Positions 10,721-54,463 of a stretch of DNA of 64,000 bases are shown here, in pieces; within the stretch, counting starts at the first letter, position 1, and every line of letters begins with the position of its first letter. The position numbers and the translations under genes are program-made. The notes below the pieces were generated by a model. It worked only from the letters and a program-made list of their open reading frames with translations, was not told the DNA's origin and searched no databases. Origin of the DNA: Naegleria gruberi (Eukaryota); assembly GCA_000004985.1 (NCBI GenBank), contig GG738868.1; one strand, 5' to 3'.

Positions 10721-13700
10721 ATGAAATTATTACATTGCTTGACATTTGTCATTCTTGTGGTGACATTGGTGTGTTCATCTCACCAACGTGAAATTATTTC
10801 ACTCTCATGTAGGTTTTGGTAGACTTTAATTTTTATTAACATGTCATGTTTAATATTTTTATATATTAATTTGCATCTGTCACTAATCAGGCAATGGTTA
10901 CATGCGTCTTTTGAAAGGATCTCTTCTAGAATCCAACATTAACATTGGTTTGGCCTATTCTGCTACTAATTATGCCATCGAACAAGCAAGATTAAGAGTT
11001 AATCAATGTCGTTGTCCATCAATTACTGAACGAAACTTCCAAAGACAATATGTTCCAGGTGTCGAAGGATTTTTATGGAATTCCATGAAGGGAAGAGCTG
11101 CTCTTGATACTTCATGTCCTGCACAATCTGATGCTCCTAATAACTGGATGCAAATGTCCAATTCTAAATATTTCGCACAAATTTCAAGTTGTAATTTGAA
11201 TGATGTTTCGAATGGTTCTCCATGTTTATTCTCACTTGCTCTTGGAAGTACTCAAATTCAAGTTGCTTTGGCTTCTTGTCCATCTGAAACAAGTGGAAAT
11301 CGTGCAACTTTTTCAATTCCACAACGTTTACCATATATTGCAATTCATTGTAAAGGTGATGATTGTGATAAGATTGGTTATCCTTGTCAACAAGATTCTG
11401 ATTGTGGTGGAAATAGTTTAACTTGTTGGGATGTTCCAAATAATGCTGGATATGGCTCAAATTTCCAATTTGGTTTTGGTTTCTTTTTTGCTGGAATTTA
11501 TAATCAATTCCAAACTTGTAAATCTCCAGAACAATTAATTGATTCATTGATGAAGACAATGTTGGCCAATCATTGGAGTCAAACTTCAACAAAGACCTAT
11601 ACTTCAATCAAGATGTGTGGTCCAAAGTTGGCACCAATTTTGAGTCCTGGAGCTAATGTACAAGCTACTTGTACTGCAAAGGTAGTTTCCAGAACTTTAT
11701 CCGAATCTCAAGAGACTCAACAAACTGCTGTAGTTCCAATGAGTGCTGATGTTGCTGCTCCTACTTCTGTTGTTACTGAAATTGCCATTCCACAAGCAAA
11801 GAGAACTGTTTCATCAGTCCAAGATTCTGTTTATTATTGTGGTGGTGTTGATTCCACATCTGCCTCTGTTTGTAGTGGAAATGGTTATTGTTCCCTCGTT
11901 GCTGGTAACATTGGTGTCTGTAAATGTAATTATGGTTATGCTGGTTCTTTGTGTTCTCAAGCAATTATGTGTGGTTCTTACAATTCTACTAATCCATCAG
12001 TTTGTAATGGACGTGGTTCTTGTCACACTATTGCTTATAATCCATTGAGTTATTGTTCATGTACTAAAGGATATACTGGAGCTCAATGTGAATATTCAGT
12101 CAGTTGTCCTAGTTGTCAAAATGGTGGTGTATGTGTCGCATCCTCAGGTGTTGTTGGTAAATGTCAATGTACTGGAACCAAATTTACTGGTGAGCTCTGT
12201 GAAAAACCTGTCACTTGTAATGGTATTGCTGCTACTAGCCCAGATGTCTGTTCTGGACATGGTTCTTGTGTTTTTGCCACTCCAAACTTTGAAGATGCTG
12301 CTACCACCTCCACTGAAGGTGTCTGTGTGTGTTATTATGATTATATTGGTCCAAGTTGTAATACCACAACATATAATCGTACATGTACCATTTCCTTGTC
12401 AAGTGTCTCTTCATGGGATGGTATTTTAGCTGATGGTTCAAATATTGTTGCTTCTGAAAAGAGAACTGCCTCAATCTCAGTTCCTGTTGATCCATTGTTC
12501 CCATCTTATGATACAAACAAGTATACTCTCATGTTGAAATATGATTGTAATGGAGTTTTGCAATTTGGTCCAAATTTGATGACAATTTACTCACCAAATA
12601 TTAATTACGGATCTACCACAATCGAAACTGTTGTTAATTCCATCTTTTCATGCAATAATGGATGGACAAGTGAATTGAGAAGAGTTTTGGTTCAACCTTA
12701 CAATGCTAAAGCTTGGTTGGCTTTACTTTCTTCCAATTCTAATACTTTCTCTGCTGGTTCTTGGACTATTTCACCAATGCAAAGAATTATTTCACTCCTT
12801 TCATTGAGTACTTTGAACGTTCAAATGCCATCCACTTGTACCTATTCAGATTATGAAACCAAAGGTTGTAGATTCACCTATACTAATCTCTTCTCATTAT
12901 TGGACAGTCAAATTAAAATCCACGTCCACACCTCTCGTTGTACAAACAATCCAGAAGGCATTCCAAACTTCTACCTCTTCTGTGAAGGTAATCTCTGTAA
13001 GCAATTATTGAATGCTCAAACATGTTCATCAGATGCTGATTGTGGAGATAACATTAAGTGTACTAATCCATTGAGTGATAATAATCTCAACGCCAACTTG
13101 TTGGATATTCTCTTCTTGGGTAATAGTAATGCTGGATGTGTCAATAATAATAATGAAACATTCTATAGACAAATTGGAGATGCTATGGATTATTCTATGG
13201 GAAGAACCAAAAAGTCCACAAATGATTTCAAGATTTGTTTCCCAAATGTCAATACAGTTTCTAATACTGCCAAGAATTGGGCTGATGCTTCTTATTCCAT
13301 TTCTGCTGGAACTATTACCTTGAAGGGATTGTTTGCATATGATGGTCCTTCACCAAGTTCTGTTGCTCCACCAACTGCCTTGAAGGTTTCAGATGTCACT
13401 GCTGCAGGTGCCACTTTCTCATGGACTGCTTCAGTAACTGCCGCAAGCTCAATAACTTATTCTTTGGTAATTAGAGATGCTGTTGGAACTCAAGTTGCTT
13501 CAGTTTCATCTATTTCTGGTACTAGCTATGTTCTTTCATCTGGTCTCTCACCAGTGACAACTTATACCGCCTATTTGACTGCTGTCATTCCAGCTAGTGG
13601 CTCAACTGCTGCTCAAGAATCTTCTGCTGTCTCTATTGAAGTTTCTACTACTGCTGGTTCATCAGGTGGTTCTAATAGAGTTCCAGGAGGTGTTGGTTCA

Positions 13701-14138
13701 ATTACAATTGTTGTCAAGATTGCTAGTCCAATTCCAAAGGGTGGCTCAATTACCCTCAGTTTACCAAATGGATATGTTGTCTCAATTGTTCAAAAGAGAG
13801 CAATTATGGCTTCAACAATTACTGTTACAGATGCTAGTGGAAGTGAAATTACTATTAGTAATGTTAATGTCAATGGCAACACCATCTCAGGAGCTGTGAG
13901 CTCTCAAGTTTCTGTTGGAAAGGTTTCTATTGCTTTAGGTTCTGTTAAAAATCCAGATACTGCCTCCACTTCAGCTTCATTTGGAAGTATTTCAACTGCA
14001 GATGCTTCAGGAAATGTGATTGAAAAGGTTACCATTTCATTACCACCAGTCAATTTTGCCACTGTTTCAGGATCTTTCATGATTAATTGTTCCTTGTTGA
14101 TTATTTCAATTTTGGCTGCATTCTTAATGATGCTTTAA
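10721..14138 (+). CDS. Secreted or GPI-anchored surface protein with multiple EGF-like Cys repeats and FN3-like modules, about 1100 aa. Exon 1 (10721-10787) encodes signal peptide MKLLHCLTFVILVVTLVCSSHQ. A 103-nt intron lies at 10788-10890 (GTGAAA..AATCAG, phase 1). Exon 2 is 10891-14138.
   Basis: EGF-like spacing (CSGNGYCS..CKCNYGYAGSLC, CNGRGSCH..CSCTKGYTGAQC, CQNGGVC..CQCTGTKFTGELC). FN3-like segment SDVTAAGATFSWTAS..YTAYLTAV. Hydrophobic C-terminus LLIISILAAFLMML. Exon 1 and exon 2 phases match (C + GC gives Arg). Confidence 0.65.
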
Positions 14139-46631: not shown

Positions 46632-48120
46632 ATGAATCCCGTAGATCCGAATTGGATTGAAACTCAACATCGTTCCTTTTTAAATTGGACGAATAGTCAA
46701 CTACGAAACAAACATGTTCAATTGACTAATTTAACAGAAGATTTAAAGAGTGGAGTCCATTTACTTGAATTACTCTCCGAATTACTTCATACTCCAATAC
46801 ACATTCCAATTACAAATCCACAGTTTAGAATACAAATGATGAATAACTTGACAGAAGCTTTGGAAATTATTCGAAAGGATTGTGACATTTCCTTGATAAA
46901 TATTGATTCGAATGATATAGTAGATGGAAATACCAAGTTAGTTTTAGCATTAATTCACTCATTGATGTATAAATATCAAGTATGTAAAGCAATGAGTGAT
47001 GACAGAAATGTCATTGACAAGAATACGCCAATGACAGTTGTTGAAAAGCAATTAATTGATTGGTTGAATTCAATTTTATATAATTCTCAACCTGTAATTA
47101 CAAATATTACAAATGATTGGACAAATGGTGAACATTTGAAAAATCTAGTTCATTATTTTCTTCCACATAATTTCGAACAAGTATTCGAAAGTTTGAATTC
47201 AATGAATCCGACTGAGAAAATTGCAGAATGTATTAAATTAGCTGATCAAGAATTGAAAATTCCAAAGATTTTAGAAGCTCAAGATATTTCCAATGGTCCA
47301 GATCAATTTTCCATGTTGGCTTATTTATCCTATTATAGAATGGCAATTAAGAAACAATTAGATCAGAAACCACCATTGGTAGAAACTGTTTCTAATACTC
47401 CTCCTCTTCCTCAACCAACAACCAATAGAAGTGGTACAAGTTCCTCCTCCTCCTCAACAACAACCATCATTGGTAGCTCAACAAGTTCCTCCTCCACCAA
47501 TTCAAGTCGAAACTAAACCAATTTCACAGCCAACAGTTTCTTCTATGAATTTTGATGATATTTCAAGTGCTCCACCATTGTCTCCTCCTTCCATTGATGA
47601 GCAAAAATTTAATTATCAACAACAACCTCCAGTCCAGAATTGGAATTTACAACCAAGTCAACCAGTCCAACCAGTTCAATATTATCCACAATCTCATCAA
47701 CAATCATTGACCAAATCAACCTATCTTCCAGATCAATCCAATCAAGCAAATTCTCACATTTCTTCATTATATTCACCTGGAAATTCAAATTCTGTTCAAC
47801 TCATTCCACAAATTCCTTCTCCAAATCAACAAGTGTACGGACAAGAAAACAATCATCAATCATTGATGGTTCCACCACCTCTAATGCCAACACAATCATT
47901 GCAACCATACATGGATCCATATCAACAGTTTAATGGAATACCAACTCAACACATGATGATGATGAATCAATATTCTCCTCAAATGCAACCTCCTCCACAA
48001 ATGCCTCCACAACAGCAACGACAACCAATGATTATCACCACAACTACTACTACAAATAATCATCAAGTATTCACATCGGATAATATGCAATATGGATATT
48101 ATCAACAACAATTTTATTGA
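46632..48120 (+). CDS. Actin-binding-type tandem calponin-homology (CH) domain protein with a long Pro/Gln-rich C-terminal low-complexity tail. The reading frame changes near 47430 (see findings).
   Basis: CH1 QHRSFLNWTNSQLRNKHVQLTNLTEDLKSGVHLLELLSELL and CH2 KQLIDWLNSIL..DWTNGEHLKNLVHYFLP. The downstream +1 frame stays open for 229 aa of PQ-rich sequence up to the stop at 48118-48120. Confidence 0.65.
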
Positions 48121-48467: not shown

Positions 48468-50339
48468 ATGACCCCATTCAAGAATCTAGTGCTTGCACTA
48501 TTGGGTCTTGTCTGCTTGACACTTATTACAAACTCTGTACAAAGTTCAAGCATGCCATCCATCATTAGAAGACAATTGACATATAAGAAATGTGAATCCA
48601 TTGGTGATCCACATTATCTTTCATTCACTGGTCAACGTTTCGATCACATGGGTTTAGGAGATTACGTTCTTGCTCAATCATCTGATAATCAATTCACTGT
48701 TCATGTCAGAACTAGTAAGTGGGGAGGTGCTGCAGCTGTCAATTCCAATGTTGCTGTCAGATTAGGTAAAGGAGAAGATGATACTTTCGAATATGATGTC
48801 GAACAAGATGTTTTTTACATTTCTGGTGTAAAGGCAAGTGTAGCTGTCAATCAAAAAGTTTCACTTGGAACAGGTGACATTCACAGATTGAATTCTAACA
48901 CTGCTGTCATTTCTGCATCCAATGGAGTCAAGATGACAATGTCTTGGTATCGTCATGCTGCTTGGAAACAACAATTAGGTTCGGTTGGCTACATTTCAGC
49001 TGTCATTGATGCTCCAAGTGATGTCAATTTCAGTAAGGGAATGTGTCTTGGCATTAATCAAGCATCTCAACAAGCAATTGACATTTTGCACAATCACGTT
49101 CAGAGAAGAATTGCTAGAAAGGCAGAACTCTTGAAGGAAACTCCAAAGAGAAAGAGAACTGCACGAAAGGTCTGTAAGAAAGCTGGTTTAAAGAAGAAAC
49201 AAAATCCATTCGCTTGGAAGTCATGTGTCAAGGATGCCATTCAATCAGGTGCCAAGATTGGTTTGGCAATTGGTAAAACCATTAAGAAGGTTAAAGTTGC
49301 TGAAAAGAAAGTTCTGAAAAAGGCAATGAAGAAGAGAGGCAAGAAAATTGTTCGAAAGGTAAAGAAGGGAATTAAAAAGGCAGAGAAACAAGTTGACTTG
49401 TTGAAGAAGAAGGCTGATCAAGCTCAAAAGAAGGCAACTGCAAAGAAAAACAAGTGTGCTAAGCGTGCTTCCAGAAAGGCCAGACGTGCTGCTAGAAGAG
49501 CCAGACGTGCCCAAAAGAAACTTGCAAAGAAACAACAAATTCTTGAAAAGGTCAAGAAAACTGTCAAGAAAACTATCAAGAAAGTTGGTCGTCGTGTGAG
49601 AAAGGTCAGAATTGTCAAGAATTGGAACAAGCTCATCAAGAAGGTCAGAAGGGACAGAAAGAGAGCCATGAAAGCTGCTAAGAAAGCTAAGAAAGCTGCT
49701 AAAAGAGCCATCAAGGAAGCAACCAGAAAGGCAAGACAACTGGCAGAAGAAAAGAAGAAACAAGCTGAAGAATTAGCTAAAAAGCTCCAAAGAGATGCTG
49801 AAGCAGCTGCCAAGAAATTGAGAGATGCTGTCGAAGCTGCTGCAAGAAAGGCAAGAGAGGCTGCCGAAAGAGCCAGACAACAAGCTGAAAATGCCAGATT
49901 GAAAGCTACTCGTCGTGCTAGAAAACAAGCTGAAAGATTGGCCAAGTTGGCCAGAGAAGCTGCTGAAAGAGCTGCCAAGCAACAAAGAGCCATTCTTGAA
50001 CAAATTCAAAAGCTTGCCAAATTGGCTGCCATCAAGAAAGCTCAACAACAAGCTGAAGCAAAGAAGAGAGCTGCCAAAGCTTTGAGAAAGGTTGAACAAG
50101 CCAAGAGAAAGGCAGCTGAAGCTCTTGAACGTGCCAAAGCGGAAGCAACCAGAAGATCTATTGAATTGGCTGATAAATTGAGAAAAGCTGCTGAAAGAGC
50201 TGCTAAAGAAGCAGTTGAAAGAGTCAAAAAAGTTGAGGAATTGAAGAAGAAGGCCATTAAGGAAGTTGAAGAAAGGGCCAGAAAACTTCTTACTGGAGGT
50301 GTTTCAAAGGGAAAGACTGTTTGTTTAAGACTTCCATAA
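48468..50339 (+). CDS. Secreted protein with signal peptide, N-terminal von Willebrand factor type D (VWD) domain and a C-terminal highly basic K/A/R/E-rich predicted single-alpha-helix / coiled-coil region of about 400 aa (623 aa total)
   Basis: Signal MTPFKNLVLALLGLVCLTLITNSVQS. VWD signature CESIGDPHYLSFTGQRFDHMGLGDYVLAQ. Residues about 230-620 are almost entirely K, A, R, E and Q. Confidence 0.6.
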   Translation: MTPFKNLVLALLGLVCLTLITNSVQSSSMPSIIRRQLTYKKCESIGDPHYLSFTGQRFDHMGLGDYVLAQSSDNQFTVHVRTSKWGGAAAVNSNVAVRLGKGEDDTFEYDVEQDVFYISGVKASVAVNQKVSLGTGDIHRLNSNTAVISASNGVKMTMSWYRHAAWKQQLGSVGYISAVIDAPSDVNFSKGMCLGINQASQQAIDILHNHVQRRIARKAELLKETPKRKRTARKVCKKAGLKKKQNPFAWKSCVKDAIQSGAKIGLAIGKTIKKVKVAEKKVLKKAMKKRGKKIVRKVKKGIKKAEKQVDLLKKKADQAQKKATAKKNKCAKRASRKARRAARRARRAQKKLAKKQQILEKVKKTVKKTIKKVGRRVRKVRIVKNWNKLIKKVRRDRKRAMKAAKKAKKAAKRAIKEATRKARQLAEEKKKQAEELAKKLQRDAEAAAKKLRDAVEAAARKAREAAERARQQAENARLKATRRARKQAERLAKLAREAAERAAKQQRAILEQIQKLAKLAAIKKAQQQAEAKKRAAKALRKVEQAKRKAAEALERAKAEATRRSIELADKLRKAAERAAKEAVERVKKVEELKKKAIKEVEERARKLLTGGVSKGKTVCLRLP

Positions 50340-50480
50340 ATCTAATTCACCTAAGTATCAATTTGTAAATAAAACACGTTAAGATTTGTTTGTTGTAAAC
50401 TAGACACAAAAAAATTTGTGTCAAGCCAAAACCAATAAATACGTTGTTTCATCAACACGATCAAAAATTTTCAAAAAAAA

Positions 50481-52206: not shown

Positions 52207-54463
52207 TTAATGTAATTGACCATCTTGTGTATCCAAATCAATATTGGATGATATTTCAGATCTAGTATCACCAAAATCAGAGTATGAACTATATAAAGGT
52301 TGTTTCAAACTGGATGAATCAAGTGAATTGGCAAATTCTTTAACTTCATCTCCTCCAACTTCGTCCCTCTCCCTAACAGAAGGCCAAACTCCAAATATTA
52401 CAAATACAAATAAACATGAGATGACCAACATCCACCCCAAAACAAGTGACAAAATGTCATATTCATAAACAATCTTTCCATCAGGTGATTGATTTCTATG
52501 ATTGGTAGAAAATGGTTGAATGCACTCAGTTACAATATTCCAAACAACGAGTATGAATAATAGAACAGGTCCAATGTACTTGATGGAAATGCTCCACAAA
52601 ATGTAAGGTCCAAATGAAGTTTCCTTGGAGAATCGTTCCCTTACATGTTCAATAGAAAAGAAGGAAACCTGTTTGAAATTATTCCAATTCTTTTCCAAAC
52701 GGAATTGATTCCAACGTTTTGAAAAGTATTGGCAAATAGAAATCCAATAGGTTATTGATTTGGTTCTTCTGAGTGCCTTTTTCTTTTTTCTATTGACTCC
52801 TCCATCTTGGTTGGAAGAGAACCATCCAATCATGACACATTCCATCATGGCAATCATTCCCATTCCATAATTTCCAACATAGTGATCTACAATTTCCAAA
52901 ATATAATACCCATTGGAGAGTGTGAATGGCACTGCAATCACACAAATGAGACAAACCACAATAATTGAAACAACTAATCGTCTGGTATTTCTACGAGGTA
53001 TTTGATTCTTGACAATATCAATCATGGACTCTACAAAACACATTATACTGTTAAATCCAACAAAGACTAGAGAAAGCAAGAGAATGAACACAAAAATTTG
53101 TGGTGTTGGGAATAATCTAGAAACTACTTCAATCATGACGAATAGAGGACTCGCAATCGCAGGAGTAAAGAGTGAATTGATTTCATAAGGACTGGTCCTA
53201 GTAGTCGAAAGATAACCTAAACTAGCATAATAGGTCAATCCACTAATTAAGGAAAATAACAATCCAAAGAAAATGATAGTCCACGAAGTGAAAATAGTAT
53301 CCTTCTTCGTCTTGTACTGTGAAGCATGAATAGCAAGAGCACCATTGGCAATACCATATGTGAAACATAATTGTCCAAAAGCTCCCAACCATAAATCTCC
53401 CTTTGCTAATAAGCTCCAATTTGGTCTGAGGAATTGCAACATTCCTGAACTAGCTCCAATTTCCAATGACACTCTAACCAATACAACAATCATAACCACC
53501 AGATACGACAAGCTCAATAATGAAATGATGACTCGAGAAAATCTATTGATGTACTGGGCAAAAACGAGCCAATAGGTAAGAAACCAGAAACAAACTAGAG
53601 AAACCAGTATTGGCCATGAAAGGAATCCTGAAAGATCAAATGAGTGATCTGAGAGATGCAATATTTCATCGTGAAAGAAGGTTTCTGGTTTATCAGACCA
53701 TGGAAATCTATATTTTCATCCAAAATATTGAAAAACAATGTTTCCAATTCAAATTAAATTGAAATACGTACTGTTCCATAAAAACATATCCAAAATAAGT
53801 TGCAATCCAACAAGTAATCACAGAATAATAAGAAGCAATAATCAAACTTCCAAAAACAATTGCTGCCATTCCAATTCCACTAGCTCTCCTATTCCACCTT
53901 CCCAATGCAAAGACAATCGATTGCTTGGCAATAGAACCCAATGTGAAATCCAAAATAATCAAAGGAGCTCCAATGATCACTAATAATACAATATATGGTA
54001 TAAAGAATGCACCTCCCTCGAATTGGTGCACTAAATAAGGGAATCTAATAACACTTCCAAACGTCATTGAGAATCCCACTGTTAAAATCAATGATTCCAA
54101 CATTCTTGCAATGACAAGGCTCTTCTTTTCATGTACAACAGAATTGCCTTGATCATTAGCAGCAGATGAGTAATAGTACAATGATGTCTGGTTATTTCCT
54201 CCGATTCCATGTTTGACAAACTTGTCATCAGCACCATGAGCACCACCACCATCATTAATACTCATCATTGAAGGAGAAGAATTTACAAAATGATTAGATG
54301 ATGAAATTCTGTGATTTGTTGATGGCTTATCTTCATGACTATCAATGGAACCATAATGAGTGGTGGGAATGTAATTGTGTTGTGAGGATTGCGAAAGGGC
54401 CCTTCCTCTCTGCTTATCATAATATTCATCATCATCATAATACAATTGATTATTATTCATCAT
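52207..54463 (-). CDS. SLC6-family (Na+-coupled neurotransmitter / amino-acid transporter, NSS) membrane transporter, about 730 aa. Exon 1 is 54463-53772, a 64-nt intron lies at 53771-53708 (CA|GTACGT..ATATAG, phase 2), and exon 2 is 53707-52207.
   Basis: NSS TM1-TM2 signature GSVIRFPYLVHQFEGGAFFIPYIVLLVIIGAPLIILDFTLGSIAKQ. Splicing gives ..YFGYVFMEQ|FPWSDKPETFFHD.., which parallels the conserved LPW motif of extracellular loop 2. Downstream helices match the NSS fold. The combined length is divisible by 3. Confidence 0.8.

Follow-up and report, generated by a model that had tools for sequence, protein, structure and literature searches.

At positions 48468-50339 (+ strand) of a 64,000-nucleotide stretch of Naegleria gruberi DNA (GenBank assembly GCA_000004985.1, contig GG738868.1; the whole stretch is called the window below), an open reading frame (ORF) joins a secretory VWD domain to a long and strongly basic tail, and the locus raises the question of whether such a tail is truly part of a VWD protein and what a protein of this kind is for. 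It was concluded that the locus is a real intronless gene for a secreted VWD protein with a polycationic tail. The ORF listing gave a complete, uninterrupted frame of 623 codons and a stop, starting at the first ATG downstream of a stop codon, and at approximately 33.5% guanine plus cytosine a run of 623 stop-free codons has a chance probability of P ~2e-21. The start codon at 48468 is preceded by an A-rich context (AAAAAAACAAATG, + strand), and the AATAAA hexamer occurs at the locus only beyond the final stop, where a pattern script placed it at 50368-50373 (+), 29 nucleotides past the stop, as a candidate polyadenylation signal. The mature window protein would have a mass of 67 kDa and a pI of 10.9, and the tail alone accounts for 41 kDa with a pI of 11.4. 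No second copy of the VWD head or of the basic tail was found elsewhere in the 64,000 nucleotides.

The full-length query returned six proteins, from N. fowleri, N. lovaniensis, N. gruberi and one ENA metagenome contig, all of them annotated only as hypothetical or 'VWFD domain-containing'. Three of the six, P0004 (ENA), P0005 (N. fowleri) and P0006 (N. lovaniensis), form a single-VWD subfamily of 533-603 amino acids and are single ORFs whose collinearity with the window protein begins at the Met and extends to the C-terminal Cys motif; the orthologue-type gene of N. fowleri (P0005) is likewise a single exon. In the alignment of these four proteins, the six cysteines of the mature chain (C42, C193, C236, C253, C330 and C619) and R621 are invariant, and all four proteins end in CLRLP, CIRIA or CLRIA. 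Moreover, the tails align 7-15 standard deviations above composition-matched shuffles, in the proximal and distal halves alike. Because the homologues are collinear, the tails align at z=7-15 and the tail cysteines C330 and C619 are conserved, the tail was taken as part of the VWD protein, as the earlier note had held; a separate gene or an untranslated repeat is, judging from these alignments, very unlikely. The neighbours of P0005 (locus L001) and of P0004 (L002) share nothing with the window, and orthology therefore rests on sequence only.

The remaining three homologues, P0001, P0002 and P0003 (926-1082 amino acids), form a tandem-VWD subfamily, in which a head module of ~235 residues is duplicated and followed by a tail of ~380-450 residues with 47-49% K+R. 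Paralogues sharing the pair of VWD head(s) and basic tail, a point raised in the earlier note, are thus found among the Naegleria homologues. P0001 corresponds to UniProt A0A6A5BKG2 (FDP41_006112, g6112.t1) of N. fowleri, a protein with two VWD domains and a polybasic tail. It was detected in the axenic secretome of N. fowleri in 4/4 replicates with 10 unique peptides and 18% coverage, SignalP 6 and TargetP called a signal peptide, DeepLoc placed it as extracellular, and the authors annotated it as 'Mucin 2/Unknown' (PMC11964265 S5 Table). In addition, it was listed as up-regulated in amoebae from mouse brain, with an HHpred match to 7KWO VWF at 5.2e-46 and the function 'Unknown' (PMC11964265 S2 Table), and it also appears in the S6 Table of this 2025 PLoS Pathogens paper on N. 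fowleri. These data show that N. fowleri produces and exports a protein with this architecture, and the secretion proposed earlier for the window protein is supported by its paralogue. A further N. fowleri protein, A0A6A5BHD4 (g7238/g8064, ~89 kDa), is RGMB-like by HHpred (2.6e-24) and up-regulated in brain-derived amoebae (PMC11964265 S2, S5); it is present in the secretome data, yet fell short of the authors' secretion-prediction criteria (score '-'; PMC11964265). It may be a further member of the family described below.

In the case of the window protein itself, the N-terminus (MTPFKNLVLALLGLVCLTLITNSVQS) carries K5 and a hydrophobic core (Kyte-Doolittle 2.9; 2.89 over LALLGLVCLTLI), which together mark a predicted signal peptide of residues 1-26 (48468-48545, +). 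Cleavage is placed after VQS, and the small residues V24 (-3) and S26 (-1) are compatible with it. A hydrophobic, signal-like N-terminal segment was present in every full-length family member examined. Pfam confirmed the VWD domain (PF00094) at residues 42-165 with E=2.8e-8, its 34.7 bits exceeding the cut-off of 22.9. Both the signal peptide and the VWD domain described in the earlier note are supported. The closest sequence match of solved structure was FCGBP (phmmer, E=2e-25). The head module was modelled by AlphaFold2 from 32 full-module sequences with a predicted local distance difference test score (pLDDT) of 93.5 and a predicted template modelling score (pTM) of 0.80, and the model consists of a beta-sandwich followed by three helices that bear C236 and C253. 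The sandwich spans residues 42-193 (48591-49046, +) and is bounded by C42 and C193, as delimited by Pfam, the model and Foldseek. The best Foldseek matches to the head model were the D assemblies of MUC5AC, MUC2 and VWF (E=3e-10) and RGMB (E=3e-6), and among the PDB matches at E<=0.001, the best 50 of 51 were VWD-containing chains of mucins, VWF, FCGBP or RGMB, bar one Cypridina luciferase. By profile and by modelled fold, the window protein is a member of the VWD family.

The head also carries a GDPH motif, G46-D47-P48-H49 (48603-48614, +), which aligns with the GDPH motifs of FCGBP and lies in the module model between strands 1 and 2 (model residues 12-18 and 22-24). All modules from Naegleria, Willaertia and the window retain the motif, and on this motif the window protein is assigned to the GDPH-bearing subclass of VWD domains. 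In domain D10 of FCGBP, the Asp and His of GDPH are needed for spontaneous Asp-Pro cleavage, and the arrangement of strands and motif is as in the head model (PMC10880436). The FCGBP cleavage occurs in the endoplasmic reticulum (ER), and the fragments stay joined by the disulfide C472-C611, whose first Cys stands 5 residues before the Asp (PMC8267560). In the window protein, C42 stands at D-5 relative to D47, the spacing of C472 and D477 in FCGBP, and C193 is its candidate partner; in P0032, P0034 and P0045, the equivalents of C42 and C193 are lost together. Since GDPH is intact, the spacing of C42 and D47 is retained, the cysteine pair is lost jointly and FCGBP gives a precedent, autocleavage at D47|P48 (between nucleotides 48608 and 48609, +) is predicted, with the 21-residue N-terminal strand staying tethered through a predicted interfragment disulfide C42-C193. 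The piece concerned, residues 27-47 (48546-48608, +), comprises a short basic linker and beta-strand 1 of the module model and ends in Gly46-Asp47; these ~21 amino acids are predicted to be freed from the chain by GDPH cleavage and to remain held through C42. Distant family members with GNPH, LDPH or GEPH probably do not cleave. In P0032, P0034 and P0045, an RGD tripeptide overlaps the GDPH motif (the modules start 'GRGRGDPHY' or 'ARGDPHY'), and Pro/Arg-rich repeats stand upstream.

Downstream of the sandwich, a helical subdomain occupies residues 196-260 (49053-49247, +) and contains an ILHNH motif and the pair C236/C253 (CxKAGL...NP...C[VI]xD). Its helices, at 199-211, 220-233 and 235-242 in module numbering, were modelled with a pLDDT of 82-96, and the two cysteines (C209/C226 of the module alignment) are invariant in the 32 sequences. 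As mucin-type D assemblies carry C8 and TIL domains, both were looked for: neither gave a Pfam match at E<=1 in the window protein, C8 gave none among ten relatives, and TIL was found in those ten only in P0141, non-significantly (E=0.15, 12.7 bits against a cut-off of 24.5) and in the tail rather than after the VWD. An identity of the post-VWD helices with C8 is not supported, as Pfam gave no evidence for it and the VWD part by itself would be expected to yield roughly the Foldseek TM-score of 0.62. RGM_C likewise had no Pfam match at E<=1 in the window protein; over the post-VWD part of relatives it matched with 12-23 bits, below the cut-off of 27, and the family profile aligned along residues 110-335 of the RGMB chain with the whole module collinear, weakly (E=0.0036). 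The description that suits the head best is a single GDPH-type VWD extended by an RGM_C-like part with two cysteines, not a mucin D assembly.

The tail was then considered by composition and geometry. In residues 211-623, K (24%), A (20%), R (13%), E (8%) and Q (6%) together make up ~71%, and 154 K+R stand against 40 D+E, a net charge of +114. The earlier description of a tail of about 400 residues built of these five amino acids is correct in kind, but 'almost entirely' was an overstatement, as L/V/I/T and others form the remaining ~29%. V/I/L/M/F/W account for only 12-23% of tail residues, and Pro is absent between positions 248 and 622. Of the two halves, the proximal one is K-rich (K+R 41-49%, D+E 2-6%) and the distal one A/K/R/E-rich. 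A polycationic amphipathic alpha-helical tail was delimited at residues 261-609 (49248-50294, +) from composition, AlphaFold2, periodicity and homologue alignment. The full-length model contains helices at 247-325, 329-415, 422-559 and 562-609, at moderate confidence. Cys330 (KNKCAKR; codon at 49455-49457, +), an invariant column in the four-protein alignment of the single-VWD subfamily, falls at the break between the first two helices (326-328). The chain ends in a non-helical segment, residues 610-623 (50295-50336, +), with the motif C-[LI]-R-[LI]-[AP] and Cys619 encoded by TGT at 50322-50324. CaaX prenylation at Cys619 was rejected, as this residue stands at -5 in a luminal protein, and a hydrophobic C-terminus of the glycosylphosphatidylinositol (GPI) type is absent from the window protein, which ends in ...GKTVCLRLP. 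The earlier anatomy was therefore right in its VWD and basic helical tail but overlooked the GDPH site with its predicted tethering disulfide, the post-VWD cysteine pair and the two tail cysteines.

The tail had been likened to single-alpha-helix (SAH) domains and trichohyalin. The density of acid-base pairs from i to i+4 was 0.18-0.33 in residues 422-609, near the reference of ~0.30 from a myosin-type SAH sequence, and for this distal third the likeness is fair; in residues 261-415, however, the density was 0.03-0.04. Among the homologue tails, D+E was 1-12% overall and 1-7% in the Naegleria ones. Because residues 261-415 and the Naegleria tails are nearly without acidic residues, stabilisation by salt bridges cannot be the conserved principle. 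What is shared is a periodicity. In the window tail, apolar (Ala and hydrophobic) and K/R residues both peak at a period of 3.60-3.65, and the same peaks were found in P0004, P0005, P0006, P0001 and P0003, that is, in six of seven tails with the window included. The local power was 1.0-1.9 compared with a shuffle maximum of 0.35-0.45 +/- 0.05 (for the window tail, 1.0-1.7 compared with 0.40 +/- 0.05), the observed power was reached in 0/100 shuffles, and no such signal was present in the VWD region. The short Willaertia tail P0012 is the exception, with a peak at 3.50-3.55 and a non-significant apolar signal (6% of shuffles reach it). The power at 3.5 was ~60-70% of the peak in local windows and near zero over the whole segment 422-609, and the autocorrelation of the tail peaks at lags 4, 7, 11, 18, 22 and 33. 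The period is closer to that of a straight or 11/3 helix than to the 3.5 heptad, and the tail helices may pack as hendecads or Ala-coils. Helices that rest on surfaces, or that pair through seams of small residues, typically have an amphipathic geometry of this kind. The conserved feature of the tail is one or more polycationic amphipathic helices with an Ala-rich apolar stripe and a K/R-rich remainder.

At the level of DNA, the tail had been read as a degenerate AAG/GCT/AGA repeat. These codons are indeed among the most used in the tail (AAG, GCT, AGA, AAA and GAA), but Tandem Repeats Finder detected only short degenerate arrays with periods of 9-30 and 2-3.6 copies. A tandem array was rejected on this ground, and the pattern is a codon bias that follows from composition. 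Four overlapping ORFs of 71-189 amino acids are listed on the antisense strand (49245-49763, 49424-49993, 49773-50099 and 50042-50257, all -). They translate into L/S/F/A-rich sequence of low complexity that mirrors the sense tail, as is expected for the reverse complement of K/A/R/E codons. The conserved homologous protein is carried by the sense frame alone. From sequence, the antisense ORFs at 49245-50257 are by-products of the K/A/R/E codon bias and not genes, in agreement with the earlier view of them as spurious.

The combination of a VWD domain with a polycationic tail had also been regarded as an oddity. A word-index search with the 243-residue head alone gave no match, despite 41-53% identity there in the six homologues, and an exhaustive profile search with the head module was used in place of this insensitive method. 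It yielded 3012 matches, and 34 full modules of 237 positions were present among the matches listed; giant animal proteins of the mucin/FCGBP type match only the first 60-100 module positions. Among the matches listed, the flanks of the 34 full-module proteins had a median K+R of 29% (range 11-47%) and D+E of 6%, and those of 115 partial, animal-type matches had K+R of 7%, D+E of 11% and Cys of 5.4%. A 'basic VWD module' family was defined here as a full 237-position module in a sequence with more than ~20% K+R; the window protein, which is the query and the first row of the alignments, falls within it. The members with organism names all come from Naegleria or Willaertia, which are heteroloboseans, and the others are metagenome or transcriptome proteins. 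Their basic partners vary and include a K/R/A helix, a His-, Pro/Arg-, Cys/Lys- or Arg/His/Cys-rich tract, and a long Ser/Thr/Lys-rich region. Two scans of metagenome loci gave none at first and then 16 distant VWD loci, with a basic flank in L003 only of the seven examined. Judged from these sequences, the joining of VWD to a basic flank is no one-off but appears as a family trait in Heterolobosea and metagenomic protists.

Several members of the family carry features of their own. In P0008 (N. fowleri, 921 amino acids), P0009 (N. lovaniensis, 1658 amino acids) and P0136 (N. gruberi, 1256 amino acids), the head is fused to very long Ser/Thr/Lys-rich regions with S+T of 23-30% and K+R of 20-27%, that is, with a mucin-like S/T content and a net basic charge, and these proteins may be true 'basic mucins' of Naegleria. 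P0071 (1520 amino acids) and P0090 (1572 amino acids), both from Logan assemblies, contain ~20 tandem Cys/Lys-rich repeats of ~40 amino acids ('C.W.......R.CC.....C.G..C') in addition to one or two full VWD modules, and the repeat is apparently undescribed. A small conserved two-Cys module, roughly 'L(K/R)xKWNP(R/N)K(H/Y)L...(K/R)C...(V/I)...L(A/V)(K/R)C', was found in P0001 (~990-1055), P0012 (~400-455), P0034 (~20-75) and P0045 (~30-95). It is C-terminal in the tandem-VWD and Willaertia proteins, but in N. fowleri P0034 and metagenomic P0045 it directly follows the signal peptide. The module has the look of a mobile mini-domain and is absent from the window protein.

From these features, we infer the ligand and biological role of the window protein as follows, and the reading, though the most likely one, is tentative. 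A secreted, GDPH-autoprocessed head would carry a polycationic amphipathic tail that binds anionic surfaces, and oligomers formed through C330 and C619 could support adhesion, agglutination or gelation. The signal peptide would direct the chain into the ER, where the VWD beta-sandwich would fold and C42 pair with C193. D47|P48 would then cleave itself as in FCGBP, MUC2 and RGM, leaving the 21-residue N-terminal strand held by the disulfide and the sheet, and the two-cysteine helical subdomain (C236-C253) would cap the head. The tail of ~350 residues would form an unbroken amphipathic helix whose apolar stripe is Ala-rich and whose remainder is K/R-rich, with a net charge above +100. Once secreted, it could lie on or condense with polyanions, for example the membranes of bacteria or host cells, extracellular DNA or acidic polysaccharides, and the unpaired-looking tail cysteines C330 and C619 would permit disulfide-linked oligomers. 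The expected outcome would be that prey or host cells are agglutinated or adhered to, possibly with their membranes perturbed, or that extracellular matrix gels electrostatically. The polyanion-binding, adhesive and antimicrobial-like roles put forward in the earlier note are plausible.

A number of points weigh against this reading. Binding of polyanions by the tail follows from its charge only, and GDPH cleavage, disulfide pairing and oligomerisation of the window protein are drawn from homology. In FCGBP, the Asp anhydride is buried and simply hydrolysed with no cross-link (PMC8267560), and autocleavage may on this precedent only stabilise the fold. The full-length AlphaFold2 model has low overall confidence (pLDDT 63.5, pTM 0.32, from an alignment of four sequences); at a pTM of 0.32, it is no guide to the packing of the tail helices. 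The secretome peptides of A0A6A5BKG2 may stem from any part of the chain and are no proof that the tail survives secretion, and the single-VWD relative A0A6A5C1R4 was not found in the supplementary tables of that paper, of which the S1 Table was available in part (PMC11964265). A literature search by locus tags and accessions found nothing on the tail or the family except this paper. VWD in 'Naegleria and Ectocarpus' is mentioned only in passing by Lang et al. 2016 (PMC4948705), and no description was found in the literature of a VWD/RGM_C-like head, predicted to cleave itself, that is joined to a polycationic amphipathic helix (260-450 residues in heteroloboseans) or to the other polycationic tracts seen elsewhere.

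A bolder form of the adhesive reading, which we regard as doubtful, is that of a 'cationic mucin analogue': an ancient family of heteroloboseans and metagenomic protists in which secreted, GDPH-autoprocessing VWD/RGM_C-like heads are set on polycationic polymers and build disulfide-linked electrostatic gels or coats on anionic prey or host surfaces. If this were true, it would represent a previously unrecognised extracellular adhesive or antimicrobial material, with the N. fowleri members as candidate contact or virulence factors. If anionic membranes or matrices are bound or perturbed by the tail, these proteins would amount to a new kind of adhesive or antimicrobial material in protists. The family would then be a candidate for a part in how Naegleria feeds and causes disease, and it would also serve as an outgroup for the pre-animal evolution of the GDPH/VWD/RGM module. 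If the tail is a generic basic spacer, the gene would be one more lineage-specific domain combination.

The alternative that survives best is a pro-protein for cationic antimicrobial or cytolytic peptides, with the VWD as a carrier or sorting head and the tail cut at dibasic sites in granules or food vacuoles into short helices that kill bacteria or harm host cells. Pore-forming peptides of Naegleria derive from multi-peptide precursors, the tail is a strongly cationic, amphipathic helix with 52 overlapping dibasic positions, 13 of them [KR]R, and the paralogue A0A6A5BKG2 is listed as up-regulated in brain-derived amoebae. However, the positional homology of the tail, its two conserved cysteines and the C-terminal motif fit an intact unit better, regular spacers or repeats of a cleavage site are absent, and the apolar face is mostly Ala and, at 12-23% V/I/L/M/F/W, weakly hydrophobic for a lytic peptide. 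A precursor of this kind was thus considered unlikely.

Somewhat more improbable is a component of the matrix or cyst wall, anchored covalently through an Asp47 anhydride in the manner of ITIH on chondroitin sulfate, with the basic tail neutralising or binding acidic wall polysaccharides. The GDPH chemistry of ITIH can yield ester or amide cross-links (PMC8267560), a basic tail is suited to acidic polymers, and the conserved free cysteines could cross-link a wall. After cleavage, however, Asp47 would sit on a 21-residue peptide tied to the body by a disulfide only, and the FCGBP anhydride forms no cross-link, as described above. Moreover, the paralogue is soluble in the medium of axenic trophozoites and not confined to cysts; the literature yielded no expression data on encystment, and nothing was found on the basic VWD module family in the cyst-wall or encystment literature of Naegleria.

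An intracellular nucleic-acid binder of the histone H1-like or nucleolar type, whose hydrophobic N-terminus is not a functional signal, is highly improbable: although the composition and the pI of 10.9 resemble H1 tails and basic ribosomal or nucleolar proteins, VWD domains are extracellular or luminal and disulfide-bonded, the six cysteines are conserved in the four-protein alignment and the hydrophobic N-termini across the family, the paralogue is in the secretome with secretory calls by SignalP, TargetP and DeepLoc, and the proline-rich pattern of H1 is absent from a chain without Pro between 248 and 622. That a separate gene or untranslated low-complexity repeat was joined to a short VWD gene by chance, as codon-biased DNA open on both strands might suggest, is scarcely credible given the stop-free run of 623 codons, the same collinear head-to-tail ORF in four species with conserved tail cysteines and C-terminal motif, the z of 7-15 over shuffles, and the AATAAA placed only after the final stop.

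The surroundings of the gene are ordinary for a eukaryote. Its neighbours in the window are a CH-domain protein, a hemerythrin, an intron-split SNF transporter and a flavin reductase, without a functional link to it; the best named match of the flanking flavin reductase is from N. fowleri, at 36% identity, which marks the source as a heterolobosean at some distance from N. fowleri. Exact-sequence look-ups of the window protein and of two neighbours gave no match. At 46632-48120 (+), an ORF with two calponin-homology (CH) domains runs to 47516, and its end is overlapped by a Pro/Gln-rich ORF of a different frame (47431-48120); this suggests that a short intron or a frameshift joins the CH-domain head to the P/Q-rich tail. 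At 52207-54463 (-), a sodium:neurotransmitter symporter (SNF) gene is split into the ORFs 53708-54463 and 52207-53661, which match consecutive parts of the Pfam profile; an intron of ~45 nucleotides was therefore placed between them, and it speaks for eukaryotic DNA in the window, with introns that are short and few. Another 'animal-like' extracellular protein is encoded at 10902-14138 (+), where an ORF of 1078 amino acids carries EGF and teneurin-like EGF repeats and fibronectin type III.

Finally, the window protein was compared with known systems. With the D assemblies of FCGBP, gel-forming mucins and VWF, it shares the VWD sandwich, GDPH between strands 1 and 2, and secretion; with FCGBP in particular, it shares a Cys five residues before the scissile Asp and a partner past the domain (C472-C611 in FCGBP). 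Free cysteines could, as in gel-forming mucins, permit polymerisation. However, the mucin/FCGBP assemblies have C8 and TIL, of which Pfam found none here, and no E module is evident in the window protein, although no Pfam model tests for E. They also have at least 8 cysteines after the VWD compared with 2 here, and 3-13 VWDs compared with one. The anionic, glycosylated Ser/Thr/Pro-rich domain of mucins is replaced by a cysteine-poor polycationic helix that cannot be glycosylated, which is the opposite charge logic.

In RGMA, RGMB and hemojuvelin, as in the window protein, one VWD-type domain of the GDPH-autocleaving subclass precedes a short region with two cysteines. They differ in having RGM_N and a GPI signal, whereas the window protein has only 15 residues between signal peptide and VWD, and they are metazoan signalling co-receptors without a basic tail; RGM_C scores here are below the Pfam cut-off. 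ITIH shares self-cleavage of the Asp-Pro bond of GDPH/DPHF type in a VWD-like sandwich (PMC10880436), with a chemistry able to attach protein to polysaccharide. In ITIH, however, the bond that is cut lies close to the C-terminus and esterification concerns the large N-terminal portion, whereas here the cut would fall 21 residues from the mature N-terminus, and the VIT and VWA domains of ITIH are absent from the window protein.

As for the tail, exchangeable apolipoproteins, alpha-synuclein and group-3 late embryogenesis abundant proteins have long helices of ~11/3 periodicity, and the likeness offers a lead. The period near 3.6-3.67 and the autocorrelation lags 11, 22 and 33 are common to both, but there is no sequence homology, the charge of the tail is far higher (K+R 30-49%) and its apolar face is poorer in bulky residues; a PDB match of the window protein to apolipophorin-III was weak and non-significant (E=0.61). 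ER/K-type SAH domains share a highly charged, helix-prone low complexity, which residues 422-609 approach in pair density, whereas the window tail has an apolar stripe, a feature that SAHs lack, and its proximal 155 residues are nearly free of acidic residues. Histone H1 tails differ in that the window tail is without proline and the protein has no winged-helix globular domain. The window protein thus lacks the defining features of the mucin/FCGBP D assemblies, the RGMs and the SAH domains. VWD is known mainly from animal proteins of mucus, clotting and guidance, and in heteroloboseans a predicted self-cleaving head of this kind is systematically joined to extreme polycations, not to anionic mucin domains.

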